DNA of 64,000 nt from an uncultured Fimbriimonadaceae bacterium. GTDB taxonomy: Bacteria; Armatimonadota; UBA10988. The notes beneath the pieces are model-generated. The model worked only from the letters and a program-made list of their open reading frames with translations, ran no database searches and had not been told where the DNA came from. A program made the position numbers and the translations under genes. Shown here in pieces: positions 2,106 to 50,154 of this stretch. The stretch is taken from assembly GCA_964531735.1 (NCBI GenBank), contig CAZHGD010000005.1:4095-68094 (forward strand). The letters are read 5' to 3'. Position 1 is the stretch's first letter; every line of letters starts with the position of its first letter.

Positions 2106-5100
2106 ATGCGCAAGCTCGTCATCGCGGTCTGCCTGTTGCTCACCCCGGCCCTGGCCGAGCCCTTGCGGGTCTCGGGACACAACCTCGACGTCAGTGTCTC
2201 CGAGCGCGGTGAGTTGGCGGTCACGCATCGCCTGACCGGCCGGACCTACCGGACGACCGTGCCGCCGGCACCGCCGACCTTGACCATTCCGCAGGCCGCG
2301 CAGTCACCGGTGATCGATGGTGACCTCGGCGAATGGGCCGCCGTACCGGCCGTGCCGATCGGGTCCGACATGGTCTCCGAGCGCATCGGCGAGGGCTCCG
2401 CTCCGGTCTGCGCCGCCGAAGCCCGGTGGCTGTGGGACGCCGACCACCTGTACGTGGCCATCACGGTCAAGGACGCGCGCCTGGTCTTCCCGAGTGCCGC
2501 CACGTTGCGTTGGTGGGACTATGACTCCGCTGAGGTCTGGCTGGGCGGCACGCAGGTCGGCTTCAGCGTCACCCCGGCCGGTTGCCTGGCCAGCCGCGTC
2601 AGTGAGCCGGCGGCGGGCTGTCGCGTGGCGATGAGGCAGGCGCGCCTCCAGCGCACCAGCAACGTGCTGCCCTGTGCCGATGGCGCGCCGGCGGCGCCGC
2701 GCGGGTACACCATCGAGGCGGCGGTGCCCTGGCGGCTGATGGCGCAGCCGCCGGCGGTGGCCGTGGGGGCGCAGGTGCCGGTGGCCGTGGGCGTCAACGA
2801 TGCCGGCGCCACAGGCAAGCGCGAGGCGCAGATCTACTACCCGCGCACTTGGCGGCATTCCTCGCCCGAGACCTTTGCCCTGGCGACGCTGGGCGACGTT
2901 CGTGGGCAGGTGCCGGGCGGCGCGAAGCCGGTGGCGCCGGTGGTCAGCAACCTGCGTCGCGTGCCGCGTGGCGTCTCGTTCCGGCGCCTGCTGTCGTCGC
3001 CGCGTGGCCAGATGGTGCAGGCCGAGGTGCAGGTCACCACGGCGCGCGACGCCGACGCCATCGAGTTGACCGTCGACGTGCCCGACCGCACGGTGCCGTT
3101 CCAGGCCAGCGCGTTCCCCGGCCCGCTCGCGGCCGACCTGGAGCAAGGGCGAATCTGCTACGCGCCATACATGGACGGCATCGACCTGCCGCAGGACAGC
3201 CCGAAGATCCACCGCTGGGGGCTGGGACCGGCGCACGATCTGCCCTTTGTCGGCCTCTACGACGCGGCCAAGGGCGATGGCTACCTGCTCATCGCCGAGA
3301 CGCCGCACGACGCGCAGTTCGTCTTCCAGCCGGCCTCCGCGAAGCCGGGCGACAAGCGCCTGGTGCCGCAGATCAACTGGCTGCCCGAACTGGGCAAGTT
3401 CGGCTACACGCGCAAGGCCCGCATCGAGTTCGTGGCCGCGGGCGGCTATGTGGCCATGGCGCGGCGCTACCGGGCGCTGGCGCGCCGGCAGGGCTACGTG
3501 AAGACGCTGCTGGAAAAGCAGCGCGAGCGCCCGCAGTTGGCGCGCCTGGGTGGTTCACCCGACGTCTGGGCCGGCGACCTGAGCTGGGCGCGCGAAGCGC
3601 ACGCCCGCGGCATGGAGCAGTGCCTGCTCAACTACACGGCCAGTCGCGCCAACATGCAGGCGGTCAACGACCTCGGCTGGCTGACCAGCCGCTACGACAA
3701 CTACGCCGACCTGCTGGAGGAGAAGGACCCGGCCAAGTGGGACGCCGTCAAGGGCTCGCTCGATATGTGCTACGTCCTGCCCGACGGCAAGCTCATGCTC
3801 GGCTGGCTGACCTGGGACAAGAAGATGCAGTACTACGAGCGGTCCTCGGCCACGGCCGAGGCCGCCGCTCGCAACTACATGCCCAAGGACCTGGAGCAGC
3901 ACCCGTACCTGGCCCGCTTCCTCGACGTCACCACCGCCTCGGGGCTCTACGAGGACTACCATCCGCAGCGGACGTTCGGCCGCCGTCAGGATGTCGAGCA
4001 CCGGTTGGCGCTGTTCCGCTACACGAACAGCCTGAAGCTGGTCACCGGCGGCGAGCACGGCCGGTTCTGGGCCGTGCCGACCATGGACTACTTCGAAGGC
4101 ATGATGTCGGGCAACGTGTACTTCTCGTGGCCGGCGGGGCACCTGCTGCGGCCGGAGAAGGGCCGCGAGGGCATCAGCCAGGACTACTACACCTACGGCC
4201 TCGGCGGCGAGTACCGCGTGCCGTTGTTCGAGTTGGTCTTCCACGACTGCGTGGTCAACTACTGGTACTGGGGCGACAGCACCGACTTCCTGCACCCGCT
4301 GGACCCCAAGATCACCGATCGCAAGGACGCGCTGAACGTGCTCTACGGCACGCCGCCGATGTACTGGATCAACAAGAGCGGCTTCGGGCGCGACCCGGAG
4401 GCCGGCTGGCCGCGGCTGATGCAGAGCTATCGCCACACCTGCCGCTGGCACCGTGAAGTGGTCAACCAGGAGATGACCAACCACGAGTACCTGACGCCGG
4501 ACAAGCTGGTCCAGCGGACGACCTTCAGCGGCGGCTTCCAGGCGGTGGCCAACCTGGCGACGGAGAACCGGACCGTCACGGTCGCCGGCCGCGAGGTGGT
4601 CCTGCCGCCGGACGGATTCGTGGCCACCGGACCCGACTTCGTGCTGGAGCGGCGGGTGCTGGACGGCCGCACTGTCACCCGCATCCGGTCGGCGCAGTAC
4701 GCGTTCGTCGACGGCGGCGGCCGGCCGGTGAGCGTGCCGGGCCTGTCGTCCAGCGGTCAGGCGACGGTGCTCGTCACCGCCGCCGAACGGCTGCGGGTCG
4801 CGGCGCACAGCGCGGCCGCGGAACTGAATCCGGCGGCGCTGGTGCCCGGCTGGGACCTCGGCGGCATGCGGCTGTTCCGGCTCGACACGGGCGGCCAGCG
4901 CGTGCAAGCGCTGCCGCTGGTGGTACGCGACGGGCGCGTCAGCCTGCTGGCCACTAAGGACGTGCTGGAACTGGCCACCGGCCGCGAAACGCGCCTGGCC
5001 GACCTGGTGCTGGAGCCGGCGGCGGTGGCCGTCAGCCCGGCGGCGCCGAAGCAAGGCGAGCCGCTCAGCATCACCGCCACGGTGCGCAACGACGGCGGCT

Positions 5101-6293
5101 CCGCGGTGCAAGGTGGCGCCATGGTGGCGCTGGTGGACGGCGCCGAAGCGGCGCGGGCGCCGCTCAACGTGGCGCCGCGCGGGCAGCAGTCCGTCACGTT
5201 GTCGGTGCCGACCGCGCAGCTTGACGGCCCGCGCGTGCTGGCGGTCGTGGCGCAGACGCCGGCCGGCCAGGGCGAGCAGTTGACCGGCAACAACCGCGTC
5301 GAGCAGACCGTCCAGGTCGTCCTGGACCGCGGTCGCTTCGGCGCCCAGCCGCTACGGGTGCTGACCGTGACCAACGGGCGGCTCGCGCAGACCGACGCCG
5401 TGGTGACCACACCGCTGACGCTGCCGGCCGACGTGGCGCCGGCGAGCATTCGCGTCTGGGACCCGGCCGCCGGCCTGGCGCTGCCGGCCCAGTTCGAGCC
5501 GGCGGCGCCGAACGGCCGCGCAGGCACGCTGGCCGTGCGCCTGAGCGGCCCGCTGGCCGCCGGGGCCACGCGACGGCTGGAGGTGCTCGGCCAGACCGGA
5601 CCGGCCACCGTGCTGGCGCCCGCGGGCGGCTTCTGGCGTCCCGACAGCCAGGAGATCGTCACGCCGGCCTACGCGCTGACGCTGGCGGCCGGCGTCATCA
5701 CCGACATCCAGGTGCGCCACGCCGGGGCACCGCGCCAGCCGGTGATCCAGCAGGTGGGCTACAGCAGTGGACCCACGGGGTGGGTGCAGGAGAACGGCCG
5801 CCTGGAGGCCTTCGACGTGTTGGCCAGTGGCCCGGTGCGCACGGTCATCCGGGTGCGCCGCAACCTGGCCAACGGGACCACGGTGTACACCAAGGTCTAC
5901 GCCTTCCTGGCCGACCGGTTCGAGGTCACCTGCGACGCGCAGCCGTCGGTCAGCGGCGCGCACAACCGGGTCTACTACCTGCAAGGCGGCACCTACACCG
6001 ACAGTCGCGCGAAGACCTCACTGATTGACGGCAAGGGCGACGACGATGACCACATCTCCGGCCCGCCGGCGGCCTGGCTGGCGCTGCGTGGCAACGGCTG
6101 GGCGCACAGCGTGGTGGCCCTGGAGCCGGCCTCAGGGGTGATCTTCTGGGACTCCGGCAACATGGGCGGCCTCGGCCTGGGCGGCACCGCGGCGCGCTCG
6201 CGGCAGGCGTTCTGCTTCCATCCGGGCCAGACCGACGACACGTTCGCTCGTCAGGACACCGAGCGGCTGCTCAACCTGCCGAAGGTGCAGTAG
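2106..6293 (+). CDS. large secreted multidomain protein (1395 aa). It has an N-terminal CBM9/DOMON-like module, a central glycoside-hydrolase-like region of unknown family, and a C-terminal CARDB-like Ig domain.
   Basis: Signal peptide [29 protein letters not shown]...[14 protein letters not shown] resembles the CBM9-like family. [17 protein letters not shown]...QQSVTLSV resembles CARDB. Amino-acid composition is diverse (W/Y/F/D/E), unlike the shadow ORFs. Confidence 0.8.
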
Positions 6294-27710: not shown

Positions 27711-27776
27711 AATTGGGGACAGCATCAATTGGGGACAGTATACTTAACTGCGTGCAGTCAAGTATACTGTCCCCAA
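27711..27776. repeat. conserved palindromic element, copy A: a partial direct repeat AATTGGGGACAGCATC, then TTGGGGACAGTATACTTAA - CTGCGTGCAG - TCAAGTATACTGTCCCCAA
   Basis: 19-nt arms with one mismatch. It is AT-rich (GTATAC core) in 70% GC DNA. It lies between convergent prfB and DUF1559 paralog 2. Copy B at 29701-29753 has the same arm sequence. Confidence 0.5.
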
Positions 27777-27828
27777 GTGCGGTCGCCAATCGCCGCTCTG
27801 GCGCCGCTCTGGCCGGAGCGCGTCGGGC

Positions 27829-28820: not shown

Positions 28821-29720
28821 ATGGGCCTCGTCTACGCCGCCGTCCTGCCGCACGGACCGGGTGTCATCGCCGAGCTGGCCGCCGACCCCGCGGTCATGGC
28901 CGCGACGCGCGACGCCATGACCGTGGCCGGTGGGCGGTTCGCCGCGGCACGGCCGGACGTGGTCCTGCTGCTCGATCCCCACTCGGTGCACGAGGCGCAG
29001 GGCGTCGCCCTGGCCGAGGTCCGCGAAGGCCGGCCGACGGCCTTCCCGAACCTGGGCTCAAGGCACATCGCCGTCTGCACGGCCAGCCGCGCCGGCGGTA
29101 CCATGGGGGGTGCCGGTGGCGGCTCGGTCACGGACACCTACGCTGGCGCTCCGGGCTTGGCCGCGGAGATTCTGGCGGCGGGGGCCGGCCTGCCGGTGGT
29201 CGCCGAGCCCGGCGGCGACGGCGGCCTGCGCCTCGCCGGCGGCGCACTCATCCCCCTTTGGTTCACGCTTCGGATGCTACCCGAGCCACGTCCGCCGCTG
29301 CTGGTGATCGACGCCGGTCCGGCGGTGGCGCGGACCGACCTGTGGCGCTTCGGTGCTGTGCTGACCGAGTGGGCGGAGCGGTCAGGTCAGCGCGTGGCCC
29401 TGCTGGCCTCGGCCGATCAGGGCCATACCCACGACCCGGGGCACGAGCGCTTCGGCTACTCGCCCGCCGCCGCCGAGCACGACCGCTGGTACTGCGCAGC
29501 CATCCGCGACCAACGCCTCGACCGCCTGCTGTCGGTGGCCGACGACCTGCTCCGCGGCTCGTGGTCGGATTCGCTTTGGCAGACGCTGATCCTCGCCGGC
29601 GCGGTCGAGGCGGCGGGCCTGCACGGCGATCTGCTGTCCTACGCCGTGCCGACCTACTACGGCCTGGCGGTGGCGGTGTATGACGACGCTGAGTGGTCCA
29701 ATCGGGGACAGTATACTTAA
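28821..29720 (+). CDS. LigB/DODA-type (class III extradiol dioxygenase-like) family protein. The assignment is tentative.
   Basis: VLPHGPGV and LLLDPHSVHE resemble the His-containing motifs of Extradiol_dioxy proteins. The last six codons and the TAA stop lie inside palindromic element copy B. Confidence 0.55.
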   Translation: MGLVYAAVLPHGPGVIAELAADPAVMAATRDAMTVAGGRFAAARPDVVLLLDPHSVHEAQGVALAEVREGRPTAFPNLGSRHIAVCTASRAGGTMGGAGGGSVTDTYAGAPGLAAEILAAGAGLPVVAEPGGDGGLRLAGGALIPLWFTLRMLPEPRPPLLVIDAGPAVARTDLWRFGAVLTEWAERSGQRVALLASADQGHTHDPGHERFGYSPAAAEHDRWYCAAIRDQRLDRLLSVADDLLRGSWSDSLWQTLILAGAVEAAGLHGDLLSYAVPTYYGLAVAVYDDAEWSNRGQYT

Positions 29721-29753
29721 CCGCGCCGGCAGTTACGTATACTGTCCCCAATC
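29701..29753. repeat. conserved palindromic element, copy B: ATCGGGGACAGTATACTTAA - CCGCGCCGGCAG - TTACGTATACTGTCCCCAATC
   Basis: The same GGGGACAGTATAC(T/G)TAA arms as copy A with a different loop. The left arm supplies the C-terminal codons and stop of the LigB-like CDS. It lies about 65 bp downstream of the DUF1559 paralog 3 stop codon. Confidence 0.5.
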
Positions 29754-44364: not shown

Positions 44365-45321
44365 ATGAGAATTCTGGTCATCGGTGGTACGGGCCACATC
44401 GGCAGCTATCTGGTGCCGCGTCTGGTGCGCGCCGGGCACGAAGTGACCGTGGTGGCCCGCCATGCGGCGCCGCAGTACACGGATCCGCGGCTGGCCTGGC
44501 CGCAGGTCACCTGGGTGCCGGCCGACCGCGCGGCGGAGGAACAGAGCGGCACCTGGCGCTCGCGCATGGCCGGGCTGTCGGCCGACGCGGTGATGGACCT
44601 GATCTGCTACACGCCCGAGCAGAGCCGCCTGATGGTCGAGGTGTTCGGTGGCCGCATCACGCACTTCCTGCACTGCGGCACCATCTGGTCCTATGGCCCG
44701 CCTGAGCGCTGGCCCTACCAGGAGAGCGATCCGCGGCGCCCGATCACCGACTATGGTCGCAAGAAGGCGGCTATCGAGGCCGACCTGATCGACCGCTACC
44801 GCACCGCGGGCTTCCCGGCGACGATCATTCACCCCGGCCACATCTCGGGCCGCAAGTGGCTGCCCATCGACCCGCAAGGCACACGCAACGGAGTCGAGGT
44901 GTACCGCAAACTGGCCCATGGCGAACCGGTCCACCTGCCGGCGCCCGGCCTGCAGACGATCCACCATGTGCACGGTGACGACGTGGCGCAGTTGTTCGAG
45001 CGGGCGCTGACCCAGCGCGCGCCGGCCCTCGGCGAGTCCTTCAGCGCCGTCGCGCCCTACGCGCTCAGCCTGATCGGCTGCTGCCGCTTCGTGGCCGGCC
45101 TGTTCGGGCGCGAGCCGAACCTGGTGCTGGCTGACGAGTCGGGGATGGCCGCCGCGCTCGGGCCGGCCTGGTCGGGCACGCTGGAGCACATTACGCACTC
45201 ACCGTGCTGCAGCATCGAGAAAGGCCGGCGCCTTCTCGACTACCAGCCGCGCTTCACCACCGAGGAAATCTACGCCGAAGCGATCGAGTACCTGCTGGTG
45301 AGCGGGCAGTTGGTGGTCTGA
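44365..45321 (+). CDS. NAD-dependent epimerase/dehydratase family protein
   Basis: MRILVIGGTGHIGSYLV (GxxGxxG Rossmann). GGAG SD. 12 bp downstream of the preceding gene. Confidence 0.85.
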   Translation: MRILVIGGTGHIGSYLVPRLVRAGHEVTVVARHAAPQYTDPRLAWPQVTWVPADRAAEEQSGTWRSRMAGLSADAVMDLICYTPEQSRLMVEVFGGRITHFLHCGTIWSYGPPERWPYQESDPRRPITDYGRKKAAIEADLIDRYRTAGFPATIIHPGHISGRKWLPIDPQGTRNGVEVYRKLAHGEPVHLPAPGLQTIHHVHGDDVAQLFERALTQRAPALGESFSAVAPYALSLIGCCRFVAGLFGREPNLVLADESGMAAALGPAWSGTLEHITHSPCCSIEKGRRLLDYQPRFTTEEIYAEAIEYLLVSGQLVV

Positions 45322-45343
45322 AGCGCCGGCCGGCGGCCGCGGC

Positions 45344-46129
45344 TCAGTCCTCGCGCCGGCAGCCGAACAGCCACTTGTAGAGCCCGTCTTCCCAGTAGGC
45401 CTTGTGCCAGGAGTCGTGGCCGGTCTTCGGGTACTCGGTGTACTTCGGTGAGCCACCGGCGGCCTTCATGCCCGCGATCATCTCGCGCGACCGGCGCGCC
45501 GGCACCACCATGTCATCAGCGCCGTGGAACGCCCACAGCGGCACCTTGGCGAAGCGGGCGGCGTGGTTGGGATTGCCACCGCCGCAGACGGGCGCCGCCG
45601 CGGCGAACAGGTCGGGCTGCGCGGCCAGGAGCACGAAGGTGCCCAGGCCGCCCATCGACAGGCCGGTGACGTAGATGCGGTGCGCGTCGATGGGGAACTC
45701 GCGCCGGATGGCCGCGACCAGCTCCAGCACCGCCACCAGCGCCGGCGTCGGCCCGGTCAGGCGCTCGCCGGGAATCGTCCAGTCGGCCCAGACGCGGTTG
45801 TTCGGGCACTGTGGCGCCAGCAGGTAGCAAGGGTACTGGCTGCGCAGCGGCTCGTTGACCAGGCGGCGGCAGGCCACCGGCTGATCGGCAATCTGGCCGC
45901 GGTTGTTGTCGCCGCGCCCGCCCGCGCCGTGCAGGAACAGCACCAGCGGGTACTTGGCGTGCGGCGCAGCATTCGCCGGCTTGAGCAGCCGGTAGGGCAA
46001 GCGGATGCTGTTGCTGGCGGCGAAGTGGCGGGCCTCCATCGCCTCCAGCGGATCCACCTCGGCGGCTTCGACGGCGGGACCCAGCAGCATTGTGCCCAGC
46101 ATCGGGGCGACCCAGCGCAACGTGTTCAT
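45344..46129 (-). CDS. secreted carbohydrate-esterase-family-1-like alpha/beta-hydrolase (feruloyl/PHB-depolymerase-type)
   Basis: MNTLRWVAPMLGTMLLGPAVEAAEV signal peptide. LFLHGAGG and GLSMGG motifs. The ORF-track N-terminal extension is Arg/Ser-rich and was rejected. Confidence 0.8.
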   Translation of the reverse strand: MNTLRWVAPMLGTMLLGPAVEAAEVDPLEAMEARHFAASNSIRLPYRLLKPANAAPHAKYPLVLFLHGAGGRGDNNRGQIADQPVACRRLVNEPLRSQYPCYLLAPQCPNNRVWADWTIPGERLTGPTPALVAVLELVAAIRREFPIDAHRIYVTGLSMGGLGTFVLLAAQPDLFAAAAPVCGGGNPNHAARFAKVPLWAFHGADDMVVPARRSREMIAGMKAAGGSPKYTEYPKTGHDSWHKAYWEDGLYKWLFGCRRED

Positions 46130-46254
46130 CGGCACACCAACTTCCTCTCGACGAGACAGTCTACCACCGCGGCGAAACACGCTATAGTACGGGGCGGCAG
46201 TGGTCAGGGCTGACCGAGGGCCACAGCTCGGCAGCCGCGGCCCCGGAACCGCCA

Positions 46255-46351
46255 GCGCTGAGGAGGCCGTAGGCCGTCTCGAAGCGCGGCGATGGGGCGC
46301 AGCCCACCTGGCCGCGCTTCGAGACGGGGCCTGCCGGCCCCTCCTCAGCGC
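46255..46351 (+). promoter_or_regulatory. ~97-nt near-perfect palindrome. Outer arms are 12 bp (GCGCTGAGGAGG / CCTCCTCAGCGC), inner arms 17 bp (CCGTCTCGAAGCGCGGC / GCCGCGCTTCGAGACGG), and the central spacer is 20 nt.
   Basis: Read directly. It lies in the divergent esterase/GRE intergenic region, about 75 nt upstream of the GRE start codon and downstream of a TATAGT box at 46182. Confidence 0.4.
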
Positions 46352-46424
46352 CGGCGGTTCGGGTGGGACCGGCCTGGTTGCGGCTCCGATCTCGACCCGC
46401 CGCAGTGGTCCGCCGGAGAGTTGC

Positions 46425-48566
46425 ATGGACGTCAACCGGTTCTGGCAGTTGGTGCATGTTTCGCGCCTGGAGGCGTGCCGCGAGGAGACGGGCCGGCCGG
46501 TACCGTTGAGCGAGGCGGCGGCGTTCGCGCGCGTGCTGCAACAGTTGCCGATTGCCGTCGGTCCGGGCGAGCGCCTGGCCACGCGGTTCGGCTGGGAATG
46601 CGCCGACGCCGACGAGCAGGCGCGGCTCCTGAAGCGCATCGAGGCCCTGCCGCCGGCACCCGCAGCCGAACCGGCGCCCGAGCTGTGGGCGCAGTTGCGG
46701 CAGTGGTACCACAGCTACCCCAGCGACGGCGGCGCGGCGCACACCACGGTGGACTACGAACAGGTCGTCAACCGCGGCGTGGTCGGCCTGCTGACCGACC
46801 TGAGCGCCGACCTGGCCGAGGCCGAGGGCGAGCGGCGGGTGTACCTGGAGGCCATGTGGCTGGCACTGTCGGCGCTGCTCGACTGGGCCGAGCGTTACGC
46901 GCGCTGGGCCGAAAGCGCCGCGCGCCGGGCGGCGCCGGACGAGGGCGAACGGTTGCGGGGCGTTGCCGACCGGCTGCGCGCGGCGCCGCGCGGCCCGGCG
47001 CGCACGTTCACCGAGGGCCTGCAAGCGGTCTGGCTGGTCCACGTGGCCGTGGGCATCTCGGAGCTCGCCGGTTGGTCGCTGTCGCTCGGGCGGCTCGACC
47101 AGTACCTGTTCGGTCTGTATCTGGCCGACCTGGCGCGCGGCGTGCCCGAATCGGCGCTGGCCGCTGACCTGGGCGAGTTCTTCCGCGCACTGAACAGCTT
47201 CTTCAGCGATCCGGCCTGCAACGTCAACCTTGGCGGCGCCGACGAGGCCGGACGCGACCAGCTCAACCCGCTGTCGGAGCTGATCGTGCGCGTGGCGCAG
47301 CGCGAGCGGCTCGAAGGGCCGATTCTGGCGCTGCGCGTGCACGACGGCCTGGCCGACGAGGACCTGGCGCGGTTCATCGATCCGGACCTGTTCGCGATGG
47401 GCCAGCCGACGTTCTATGGCGAGGAGCCCTGCCGCGCGGCGTTGCGGCGGCGCGGCGTGCCGGCCGACGAGGTCCACCAGTGGGTGGCCAACAGTTGCAT
47501 GGGCCTGATGATGCCGGGCCAAGAGTGGTCCGACATGTGGGGCTCGGTGGTCAACGTCCTGCTGCCGCTGGAGCTGGCGCTCAACGGTGGCGAGCCGTTC
47601 GCCCACCCGGCACCGTTTGCGTTGCGCACGCCGACGCCCGACAGCTACGCCGACTTCGAGGTGCTGTTCGAGACGGTGGCCGCGCACCTCGACCAGTACA
47701 TCGATCTGCTGTGCGTGGAGACCGAGGCGCGCACCGCGCGTCACGGCCGCGAGCAGCCGAACCCGTTCGTCTCAGCGCTGCTGGCCGACTGCCGCCAGCG
47801 CGGGCTCGATCGGTTGCTCGGCGGCTGCCGCTACCGCACGGTGATCGTCGAGGCGTTCGGCCTGGTCAACGTGGCCGATGCGCTGTACGCCATCGAGCAG
47901 TTGGCCTTTGTCGAAGGGCGCTTCACGCTGCCCGAACTGGTGGCCGCGGCGCGCAGCGACTATGCCGAGCGGCCCGACATCCTCCACGCAGTGCGGCGCT
48001 TGCCCAAGTACGGCAACGGCGAGCCGGCGGTGGATGCGATGGCGCGGCGGCTGGCGGCGCGGTTCGCCGCCGCGGTGGCGCGGCACTCGCGCGAGCGCGT
48101 GACCTACCTGCCGTCGTTCCACACGCTGGCCGCGCACCTCTCGGCGGGCGCGCTGCTCGGCGCCAGCCTGGACGGTCGGCGCGCCGGCGAGCCCCTCGCC
48201 AAGAACGTCGGTTCGACGCCGGGCCGGGCCACTCACGGCCACACCGCGCTGATGGCCTCGGCAACCACCATTGACCAGGCCGCGTTCGGCGGTGGCCAGG
48301 CGCTGGACATCTCGGTGTCGCCCGACTTGTTGCGCACGCCGACTGACCGGGGCAAGTTCGGCGCGCTCTTGCGCGGGTACTTCCGTCAAGGCGGCCTGCA
48401 GGTGCAGGTGAACGGCGTCACCGCGGCGCAACTGCGCGCGGCGATGGCCGAGCCGGCAGCGCACCGCGACCTGCTGGTGCGCAAGGCGGGCTACACCACG
48501 CGCTTCGTGACGCTGGGGCGCGTGGAGCAGGAAGAGCTGACGCGGCGGCTGGAGGCTGGGCTGTAG
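46425..48566 (+). CDS. glycyl radical enzyme, PFL2/glycerol-dehydratase-like family, divergent (713 aa)
   Basis: The C-terminus GGLQVQVNGVTAAQLRAAMAEPAAHRDLLVRKAGYTTRFVTLGRVEQEELTRR matches the Gly-radical domain (…RDLIVRVAGYSAYFVELS…QDEIISRT pattern; radical Gly at codon 689, 48489-48491). TFTEGLQAVWLVHVA is also GRE-like. Variant motifs: the Cys-loop reads NSCMG (no Glu two residues after Cys), and GNGEP replaces GNDDD. The start was refined to MDVNRF, with GGAG 6 nt upstream. Confidence 0.8.
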   Translation: MDVNRFWQLVHVSRLEACREETGRPVPLSEAAAFARVLQQLPIAVGPGERLATRFGWECADADEQARLLKRIEALPPAPAAEPAPELWAQLRQWYHSYPSDGGAAHTTVDYEQVVNRGVVGLLTDLSADLAEAEGERRVYLEAMWLALSALLDWAERYARWAESAARRAAPDEGERLRGVADRLRAAPRGPARTFTEGLQAVWLVHVAVGISELAGWSLSLGRLDQYLFGLYLADLARGVPESALAADLGEFFRALNSFFSDPACNVNLGGADEAGRDQLNPLSELIVRVAQRERLEGPILALRVHDGLADEDLARFIDPDLFAMGQPTFYGEEPCRAALRRRGVPADEVHQWVANSCMGLMMPGQEWSDMWGSVVNVLLPLELALNGGEPFAHPAPFALRTPTPDSYADFEVLFETVAAHLDQYIDLLCVETEARTARHGREQPNPFVSALLADCRQRGLDRLLGGCRYRTVIVEAFGLVNVADALYAIEQLAFVEGRFTLPELVAAARSDYAERPDILHAVRRLPKYGNGEPAVDAMARRLAARFAAAVARHSRERVTYLPSFHTLAAHLSAGALLGASLDGRRAGEPLAKNVGSTPGRATHGHTALMASATTIDQAAFGGGQALDISVSPDLLRTPTDRGKFGALLRGYFRQGGLQVQVNGVTAAQLRAAMAEPAAHRDLLVRKAGYTTRFVTLGRVEQEELTRRLEAGL

Positions 48567-48579
48567 AAAGGGGCCAGGC

Positions 48580-50154
48580 ATGGCGCGATGGCTGGGTGTG
48601 TGTCTGCTGCTGCCGCTGGTGGCAATAGCGGCTGAGAGGACCGTGCGACCGGCGCTGACCGCCGACACCGCGCCGCAGTGGCGGTTCGTCAGCGGGCGCT
48701 GGCAACTGGCCGACGGCGTGCTGCGCCAGACGCAGCCCGACCGGCTCGGCGCCGCGGTGCTGGCCGGTCCGGCGTTCACCGACAGCGAGCTGTCGGTCGA
48801 GTTCCGGATCGCGGCCGAGGGCCAAGGCGTGCGCGCGGCGGCGGTGCTGTTCCGCGCCACCGGCACGCTGACCTACTACTGGCTGCACCTCGACTCGAAG
48901 CACAGCCAGGCGATCCTGGTGCGCCGCACGCCGCACAACCCGTGGATCGAGATCACGCGCCGCCGCGGCGTGGCCATCGCGTCGGAGCAGTGGCACCGCG
49001 TGCAGGTGGGCTGCGTGGGTGGTCACGTTACGGTGCGACTGGACGACCGCGAGATCCTGCAAGCCGACGACACCAACCTGCCGGCCGGCTACGTCGGCCT
49101 GGGCACCAGCCAGGGCCAAGTGGAGTTCCGCACGCTGGTGGTGAAAGGACAGACCGCCATGGACACACCGCTGCGCGACGAGCAGCCGCCGTTCCGCGTC
49201 ATCTCACTGGGTGCTGCGGCCGGGCCGTACCAGGCGTTTCCCGATGTCTGCCGCTGCGCCAACGGCGACCTGTTGGCCGTGTTCTACGCCGGCTATGGCC
49301 ATGTCTCGCTGCCGACGGCCGCGTGGCCGAAGGGCGGCCGCATCGGCATGGTGCGCTCCAGCGACGACGGCCGAACCTGGACCGAGACGGCGGTGTTGTT
49401 CGACAGCGACCTGGACGACCGCGATCCGCACATCGCGCAGATGAGTGACGGCAGCCTGGTGTGTACGTTCTTCCAGTACTGGCGCGACGGCAACCAGACG
49501 CGGTTCGTCACCTGCCTGACGCGGTCGCGCGATGGTGGCCGCACGTGGGACACCACCGCACAGCGGATCAGCCCCGAGGGCTGGGCGGTCTCGGCACCGG
49601 TGCGTGAGTTGCGCGATGGCACCTGGCTGCTCGGCGTCTACACCGAGTCGGGCGGCCACGCCTGGGGCGGTGTGCTGCGCTCCACCGACCGCGGCGCCAC
49701 CTGGAGCGCACCGATCCCCATCGGCCAGGAGGCCAACCTGCCGCTGGACGCCGAGACCGACGTGATCGAGTTGCGCGACGGCACCATCCTGGCGGCGCTG
49801 CGCAGCAGCAAGGTCAATCTGCACGTGGCCACCAGCGCCGATAAGGGCCTGACCTGGACGCCGGTCAAGGACGCCGGCTTCCCCGGCCATGCGCCGCACC
49901 TCTACCGTCTGAGCACGGGCGAGATCCTGATGACGCACCGGCTGCCGGCCACGGCGGCGCACCTCAGCCGCGACGACGGCCGCACCTGGCAAGGGCCGTA
50001 CCAGCTCGACAGCGTCGGCGGCGCCTATCCGTCTTCGGTAGAGCTGCGCGATGGGAGCGTGTTGGTCATCTACTACGAAGAGGGCGAAGGCAGCGCGATC
50101 CGGGCACTGCGGGTGCGGGTGACCGCCCAGGGCGTGGAAGTGGCGGGGCCGTAG
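48580..50154 (+). CDS. secreted DUF1080 (3-keto-glycoside hydrolase-like jelly roll) plus BNR/Asp-box sialidase-like (GH33-type) protein
   Basis: Signal peptide MARWLGVCLLLPLVAIAA. Five Asp-box repeats (SSDDGRTW, SRDGGRTW, STDRGATW, SADKGLTW, SRDDGRTW). 13 bp after the GRE stop codon, with AAAGGGG SD. Confidence 0.85.
   Translation: MARWLGVCLLLPLVAIAAERTVRPALTADTAPQWRFVSGRWQLADGVLRQTQPDRLGAAVLAGPAFTDSELSVEFRIAAEGQGVRAAAVLFRATGTLTYYWLHLDSKHSQAILVRRTPHNPWIEITRRRGVAIASEQWHRVQVGCVGGHVTVRLDDREILQADDTNLPAGYVGLGTSQGQVEFRTLVVKGQTAMDTPLRDEQPPFRVISLGAAAGPYQAFPDVCRCANGDLLAVFYAGYGHVSLPTAAWPKGGRIGMVRSSDDGRTWTETAVLFDSDLDDRDPHIAQMSDGSLVCTFFQYWRDGNQTRFVTCLTRSRDGGRTWDTTAQRISPEGWAVSAPVRELRDGTWLLGVYTESGGHAWGGVLRSTDRGATWSAPIPIGQEANLPLDAETDVIELRDGTILAALRSSKVNLHVATSADKGLTWTPVKDAGFPGHAPHLYRLSTGEILMTHRLPATAAHLSRDDGRTWQGPYQLDSVGGAYPSSVELRDGSVLVIYYEEGEGSAIRALRVRVTAQGVEVAGP

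Follow-up and report, generated by a model that had tools for sequence, protein, structure and literature searches.

A long GC-rich palindrome in the presumed leader of a glycyl radical enzyme gene lies within a 174-bp block that is absent from a close relative

In the 64-kb window (the whole stretch of DNA analysed here), a real and statistically exceptional palindrome lies between the divergent genes for a secreted esterase and a PFL-like glycyl radical enzyme (GRE). The palindrome belongs to a block that is cleanly missing from the corresponding intergenic region of a relative, and we put the probability that it is the core of a 174-bp insertion, that is, of a mobile or once-mobile element, at roughly 0.5. 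The evidence favours a palindromic insertion that is lineage-specific, dispensable and located in the GRE leader over a regulator devoted to this gene. The main value of the analysis lies in this corrected interpretation: a conspicuous leader hairpin is not necessarily regulatory.

Genetic setting of the palindrome

The palindrome sits in a 295-bp divergent intergenic region, with the esterase gene on the minus strand and the GRE gene on the plus strand. The locus contains the following elements.

45344-46129, minus strand: secreted alpha/beta-hydrolase (esterase or peptidase S9-like) of 261 amino acids, with a signal peptide
46183-46188, plus strand: TATAGT, a -10-like box and presumed promoter element of the GRE gene, within the conserved 76-nt stretch described below
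46415-46420, plus strand: GGAGAG, the Shine-Dalgarno (SD) sequence of the GRE gene, separated from the ATG by 4 nt and conserved in the relative
46425-48566, plus strand: PFL-like GRE of 713 amino acids (Pfam PF02901, 2e-85; PF01228, 2e-15)

The first-pass annotation had named the gene a GRE and placed its start codon at 46425. Both statements are correct: the two Pfam domains identify a PFL-like glycyl radical enzyme, and the ATG follows its SD at the proper place. The TATAGT box that it had reported is present as well, though at 46183-46188 and not at 46182; a consensus scan found no full sigma-70 consensus promoter. A 713-residue protein that is 100% identical to the GRE and has the identical start exists in the public protein collection (P0001), and the closest relatives of the enzyme are encoded by metagenome-assembled genomes (MAGs) of Armatimonadota, Lentisphaerae and Planctomycetota.

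The window also encodes several DUF1559/N-methyl proteins and many carbohydrate-active enzymes. Downstream of the GRE gene lies that of a BNR/sialidase-like protein with a 3-keto-disaccharide hydrolase domain (window 46425-50154). A radical SAM activating-enzyme gene is not located beside the GRE gene, and none of the 37 window ORFs scanned with Pfam matched a radical SAM family. GRE homologues at 56-58% identity are found in quite different gene neighbourhoods.

Structure and stability

The perfect inner (17 bp) and outer (12 bp) arms that had been reported at 46255-46351 are confirmed, and the symmetry extends beyond them. The repeat finder delimits an imperfect inverted repeat of about 121 nt at 46243-46363, and a gapped arm-to-arm alignment yields arms of about 48 and 53 nt that differ by about 10% substitutions and four small indels. 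About 90% of the aligned arm positions are matched, with perfect runs of 17 and 12 nt. The GC content of the palindromic element is about 75%, that of the whole window about 70%. The parts of the structure are listed below, with a strand where one applies.

46202-46242, plus strand: extra small hairpin (GGUC..AGGGCUGACCGAG..CUCGGCAGCC..GGCC) 5' of the big palindrome and mostly within the 174-bp block, present in both the MFE and the centroid fold of the leader
46243-46266: left outer arm CCGGAACCGCCAGCGCTGAGGAGG, 24 nt, 92% complementary to 46340-46363
46255-46266 and 46340-46351: perfect 12-nt outer runs
46264-46274: mini-palindrome GGCC-GTA-GGCC between the outer and inner arms on the left side, with GTAG at 46268-46271; it forms a side hairpin when the minus strand is folded
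46274-46297: left inner arm, 24 nt, 88% complementary to 46304-46327, with the perfect 17-mer CCGTCTCGAAGCGCGGC at 46274-46290
46304-46327: right inner arm, with the perfect 17-mer GCCGCGCTTCGAGACGG at 46311-46327
46325-46340: mini-palindrome GGGGCC-TGCC-GGCCCC at the junction of the right inner and outer arms, from the fold and the arm alignment
46340-46363: right outer arm CCTCCTCAGCGCCGGCGGTTCGGG, 24 nt, partner of 46243-46266

The perfect 17-nt inner arms are separated by a 20-nt spacer. GGCC-GTA-GGCC and GGGGCC-TGCC-GGCCCC appear at first sight to be asymmetric inserts, but in the gapped arm-to-arm alignment they are homologous to each other with small indels. Since both inserts are themselves mini-palindromes, the palindrome has a four-way junction as an alternative fold. 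No perfect inverted repeat in the window is longer than 17 nt, a length at which the palindrome ties with an unrelated one at 27729-27776.

Folding bears out the earlier description of a very stable hairpin. As RNA, the plus strand of the palindrome reaches -107.7 kcal/mol (z -7.5) and the minus strand -113.1 kcal/mol (z -9.0), and in neither case was any of 200 shuffled sequences equally stable; as single-stranded DNA, the palindrome folds with -61.1 kcal/mol (z -6.4). Among 3,757 sliding 136-nt RNA windows (mean -60.9, s.d. 9.2) it is the most stable, the next best elsewhere having a value of -93.2. The second most stable 136-nt RNA fold, at 5424-5610 (about -93 kcal/mol), is located inside a 1,395-residue ORF at 2106-6293.

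A relative without the block

Via a 95%-identical cluster mate of the esterase, we found a 1,629-bp JGI metagenome contig, here termed L120 (JGI 3300022664), on which the divergent gene pair recurs, the GRE with its N-terminal part, at about 90% nucleotide identity to the window. Coding identity between the two is 90-91%, and identity at third positions (synonymous sites) is about 80.5%. The intergenic region, however, measures 121 bp in L120 as compared with 295 bp here, and the difference is a single clean gap of 174 bp: window positions 45336-46205 (91.3% identity) and 46380-47071 (89.2%) align without gaps to adjacent stretches of L120. The indel and the short repeat that flanks it are as follows.

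46201-46211, plus strand: left copy of an imperfect 11-bp direct repeat, TGGTCAGGGCT, matching 46375-46385 at 8 of 11 positions
46206-46379: presence/absence block of 174 bp with the whole palindrome and the small 5' hairpin, absent from the L120 intergenic region
46375-46385, plus strand: right copy of the imperfect 11-bp direct repeat, TGGTTGCGGCT, matching 46201-46211 at 8 of 11 positions

The flanking repeat, which occurs once in L120 (TGGTCGCGGCT), allows the limits of the block to shift by up to about 6-11 nt. An 8/11 match at this place has a chance probability of about 0.003, and its longest perfect run is 4 nt. The repeat could represent a target-site duplication or, equally, the substrate of a deletion.

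The two flanks of the block are conserved to different degrees. The left 76 nt of the intergenic region (46130-46205), which include the esterase SD and the TATAGT box, are 93.4% identical to L120, clearly more than the roughly 80% seen at synonymous sites; the 45 nt before the GRE ATG are, apart from the SD, 77.8% identical. On this evidence, the promoters lie upstream of the block. The distance from the TATAGT box to the GRE ATG is 68 nt in L120, as is normal between a promoter and a start codon; in the window, the block begins about 18 nt after the box. We infer that TATAGT is the -10 element of the GRE gene, which would set the transcription start near 46195 and the block at about +10 of the leader. 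It is reasonable to suppose that the palindrome is transcribed as part of this leader.

The GRE frame stays open upstream to a GTG at 46200, running through the palindrome block, and with 174 nt corresponding to 58 codons the indel preserves the frame. The possibility that the GRE extends further at its N-terminus (ORF 46200-48566) was considered and rejected: the homologues and P0001 all start at 46425, the GGAGAG SD precedes that ATG, and the upstream substitutions relative to L120 are mostly non-synonymous.

Origin of the block

We favour an insertion because miniature transposable elements typically leave behind just such a palindromic block bounded by a short duplication. Across the 22 nt of the flanking repeat, the three differences are compatible with background divergence. 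Insertion is also favoured by the state of the arms, which differ from each other by about 10% as compared with about 20% neutral divergence between the lineages; an older palindrome free of selection would be more decayed. The palindrome thus looks younger than the lineage split, unless something has maintained it. In addition, an unrelated dispersed palindromic repeat with the motif GGGGWSAS occurs in the same genome, which suggests that palindromic mobile DNA is present in this lineage. Several observations count against insertion. No second copy of the element was found, and the copies of the putative duplication differ at 3 of 11 positions. The extreme ends of the block are not inverted repeats, an additional hairpin of about 30 nt being present on the left. 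Finally, without an outgroup a deletion in L120 explains the indel equally well; the next homologues after L120 share 59% (esterase) and 58% (GRE) identity, so that parsimony does not separate the two directions.

On the insertion reading, we propose that the 174-bp lineage-specific block is a non-autonomous, hairpin-forming MITE/REPIN-like element, or an orphan remnant, and that it would have entered the short divergent esterase/GRE promoter region, about 10 nt downstream from where GRE transcription presumably begins. As a consequence, the GRE mRNA would possess a leader of about 230 nt instead of about 55 nt, containing an imperfect hairpin of about 50 bp. The hairpin would not serve as a dedicated sensor, and its effect on GRE expression, if any, would be a by-product. 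By analogy with Correia and ERIC elements, candidate by-products are RNase III-type cleavage (or protection), an altered mRNA half-life and a pause of RNA polymerase. The insertion event, past or present mobility, transcription, and RNase III or stability effects are all what we infer from the nucleotide sequences.

The single comparison with L120 indicates that the hairpin is dispensable and was probably inserted. If the block is mobile, it would offer a way to study palindromic mobile DNA in an uncultured, high-GC lineage about which little is known, and the two loci would form a natural with/without pair for the effect of a 50-bp leader hairpin on GRE expression. As a single orphan element, its consequences are modest. 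More far-reaching versions, in which the block is the first copy of an undescribed GC-rich MITE/REPIN-like family of an uncultured Armatimonadota/PVC-like lineage, possibly with an 11-bp duplication, or a recently acquired leader that controls the GRE via double-strand-specific RNA processing, would be speculative, and we regard them as unlikely.

A possible, albeit rather doubtful, origin is the reverse one, namely that the block is an ancestral and possibly functional leader element, acting in the stability or processing of the GRE mRNA, and that a slipped-strand deletion removed it from L120. Slippage between flanking repeats is a known route by which long palindromes disappear, and the direct repeats around the palindrome could have acted as such a deletion substrate; as noted, parsimony without an outgroup favours neither direction of the indel. 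The arms are also matched better than about 20% neutral divergence would allow if the palindrome were old and unselected, which would fit selection for pairing, and the position in the presumed leader suits a cis-acting RNA. However, beyond one A-C/G-U position the arms display no G-U pairs or compensatory pattern, and the symmetry therefore looks DNA-level and recent. Flanking repeats whose longest perfect run is 4 nt are a poor substrate for slippage, and L120, which is devoid of the element, keeps the SD and the promoter box intact. Distant GRE homologues have no such leader, and no Rfam family corresponds to it.

It is improbable that the palindrome formed locally, by template switching or inverted duplication followed by drift, and is non-mobile and functionless. 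Such an origin would agree with the single-copy state in all data searched and with a weak symmetry that reaches into the conserved right flank (46216-46239 versus 46380-46400, 17 matches in 23 columns with two gaps). This weak outer symmetry, however, is within chance for 70% GC, and nothing else in the window resembles either arm. Moreover, L120 lacks both arms, which argues that neither was copied from the sequence of the ancestral site.

Regulatory readings and the leader

Action at the DNA level, as a cruciform or long operator through which a bound regulator or nucleoid protein would control the two divergent promoters, is very unlikely. Palindromic DNA in a divergent promoter region would suit such a role, as would the stability of the single-stranded DNA fold (-61 kcal/mol, z -6.4). 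The palindrome is, however, far longer than known operators and is absent from L120, whose promoter region is otherwise conserved, and no regulator gene is adjacent.

The first-pass annotation had considered a transcription attenuator, a thermo- or redox-responsive element and, in the case of conservation in synteny, a cis-regulator of the GRE gene. The location of the palindrome between a conserved -10-like box and the start codon would be in line with such classical cis-regulatory RNAs (attenuator, riboswitch, RNA thermometer or redox switch), and each half can fold on itself (GCGCU...AGCGC), so that alternative pairings are conceivable on paper. When the presumed leader of 251 nt is folded, the centroid structure retains both the large hairpin and the small one 5' of it, and leaves SD and AUG unpaired. 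An attenuator finds no counterpart in the sequence: a terminator scan of 45900-46700 detected neither a U-tract nor a terminator-like site, the stem is followed by GGUUCGGGUGGGACC, and the long hairpin dominates the ensemble. With about -108 kcal/mol, the stem cannot realistically melt or switch, and SD and AUG, which remain free in the centroid, are 50-60 nt away; these features speak against a thermosensor or redox sensor. The GAGGAGG/CCTCCTC motifs, previously described as an SD/anti-SD-like pair, simply belong to the outer stem, and GAGGAGG is not followed by a start codon.

The closest relative, L120, has no such hairpin before its GRE gene, and the four nearest retrievable GRE homologues have upstream gaps of -31, 22, 100 and 48 bp, different neighbours and no comparable leader; these gaps indicate that the gene family has no conserved leader. 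A search of the whole window against Rfam gave no match at the gathering thresholds. At permissive E-values, 46100-46450 matched miRNA precursors alone (at most 32 bits, with thresholds of 46-197), which means merely 'long hairpin'. Taken together, we hold a classical cis-regulatory RNA of the GRE gene for a remote prospect.

A fold-back chimera created during assembly would accord with the source of the sequence, a MAG, and with the end of the Logan contig L121 (SRR9860463_184169) inside the right arm at about 46340, but this independent assembly matches the window at 100% identity over 45183-46340, a stretch that takes in the left arm and the entire inner hairpin, the arms are imperfect with indels, in contrast to fold-back artefacts, and the esterase-GRE join is seen in L120 too, so that we attach next to no weight to an artefact. 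The break in L121 may result from a drop in coverage at the GC-rich hairpin or from strain heterogeneity. The GRE gene is spread over several Logan contigs.

Search for further copies

Within the 64-kb window, neither a search allowing up to 3 mismatches nor short-word blastn or nhmmer detected a second copy of either arm. A scan of genome contigs with the 17-mer arm returned at least 117 single-arm chance matches in unrelated taxa, and none of the matches listed was palindromic. For the metagenome scan we used a pattern of both inner-arm cores (12+12 nt) with a spacer of 10-30. In the JGI metagenomes, which hold a close relative, 10 contigs matched this pattern, and none of them was homologous beyond it. 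IMG/VR, plasmids and phages yielded no further copy. Translated searches were directed at ORFs called over other copies. The six open stretches of the element, one per frame, had no match among 5.8 billion clustered proteins; with HMMER, frame +1 gave two marginal multi-stretch matches (E about 1e-4) to long proteins among 1.84 billion representatives, which we judged to be compositional. Pfam found no transposase among the 37 window ORFs scanned, and there was no RAYT among them.

The first-pass annotation had also offered the remnant of a mobile palindromic repeat as an explanation, with many dispersed copies as the sign of mobility. Of its proposals this one fits best, inasmuch as the palindrome lies in a presence/absence block with an imperfect flanking repeat, but the dispersed copies did not turn up in the window, the JGI metagenomes, IMG/VR, plasmids, phages or translated ORFs.

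An integron attC site was considered as well and rejected: GTTCGGG (46357-46363) does not fit GTTRRRY, and no integrase is encoded nearby.

Relation to known palindromic elements

ERIC/IRU elements are imperfect palindromes of about 127 bp that occur in transcribed intergenic regions, vary among strains and affect mRNA stability, and MITEs carry terminal inverted repeats and target-site duplications. The element described here resembles both in its size, its filled/empty polymorphism and its position near a gene start, L120 supplying the clean empty site. In contrast to ERIC elements and MITEs, it shows no sequence similarity, has neither a parent IS nor a copy family, and is flanked by an imperfect putative duplication (8/11). 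Multiple copies or a parent IS, as found for MITEs, were not encountered in the window, plasmids, JGI metagenomes, IMG/VR and phages searched. With respect to terminal repeats, the element is an inverted repeat nearly throughout, but the ends beside the putative duplication do not pair.

Correia elements (CREE/NEMIS) of Neisseria are, like the block, palindromic intergenic inserts (about 100-155 bp) that are present or absent between related genomes. They differ in being richer in AT and in having terminal inverted repeats of a defined 26 bp, a TA duplication and hundreds of copies. The element in the window, by contrast, has about 75% GC and no sequence similarity to them, is bordered by an imperfect 11-bp repeat and has been seen once. 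Like the block, Correia elements often lie just upstream of genes; they are co-transcribed with these, and their RNA hairpins are bound or cut by RNase III (PMC2649163). They also create promoters, bind IHF, are cut or protected by RNase III and in this way affect neighbouring genes (PMC2649163).

REPINs are inverted REP doublets mobilised by RAYTs (PMC3337134). They share with the element the character of GC-rich, extragenic, imperfect palindromes of about 70-120 nt that insert without a clean duplication (PMC3337134, PMC3116915, PMC3733652). The element also has the architecture of a REPIN: a spacer is flanked by two inverted units that together form one long hairpin, and each half can form a small one. 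GTAG (46268-46271) and CGTC (46275-46278) are located beside the stems. REPs, however, are units of 20-40 bp with stems of 6-13 bp, loops of 2-5 nt, an unpaired GTAG/CGTC tag at one end, a high copy number and a RAYT gene (PMC3733652), whereas the stem here comprises 17-24 bp and the loop 20 nt, no second copy was found, and no RAYT is among the ORFs scanned. The element thus falls outside the definition of GTAG/CGTC-tagged REPs and also departs from the rule for the CGTC family (A/T in the first two stem positions). It is probably an orphan within the broad class of miniature insertions that form hairpins, and not a member of any named family.

Other palindromes

A nested-palindrome family with the core GTTCGCGCTGAGCTTGTCGAAGCGCGGCC (variant CCGTTCATCCTGAGCCTGTCGAAGGATGG) is dispersed in JGI metagenome contigs, sometimes with several copies per contig or metagenome (L129:3114-3193, L129:3279-3350, L132:1591-1692 and L131:1855-1945). 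L129, L131 and L132 are three of the ten contigs returned by the metagenome scan with the inner-arm cores. A full-text literature search found no paper on the core sequence. The family and the element in the GRE leader have the modules CGCTGAG and TCGAAGCGCGGC in common, in the same order and within a nested palindrome. The shared 12-mer, however, is forced by the search pattern, and outside it the likeness is marginal, 5-21 of 500 shuffles scoring equally. The modules are spaced by 4-5 nt in the family versus 16-21 nt in the element, and blastn yields no overall alignment. The family has a sub-threshold Rfam match to RF02901 AaHKsRNA41 (43-45 bits compared with a gathering score of 97).

A second, unrelated palindromic family is present in the window itself, as hairpins of about 50 nt with the structure (A)ATTGGGGACAGTATACTTAAC-loop-GTTAAGTATACTGTCCCCAA at 27711-27779 and 29700-29752. 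Each copy occupies the gap between convergent genes, immediately 3' of a DUF1559/N-methyl gene, and GGGGACAGTATAC of this family has 4 exact matches where 0.45 would be expected. Its sequence GGGGACAG fits GGGGWSAS, a motif known from the inverted repeats on either side of TIRYT/RAYT tyrosine-transposase genes (PMC3733652). These features suggest that the second family is a REP/TIR-like mobile family of this genome.
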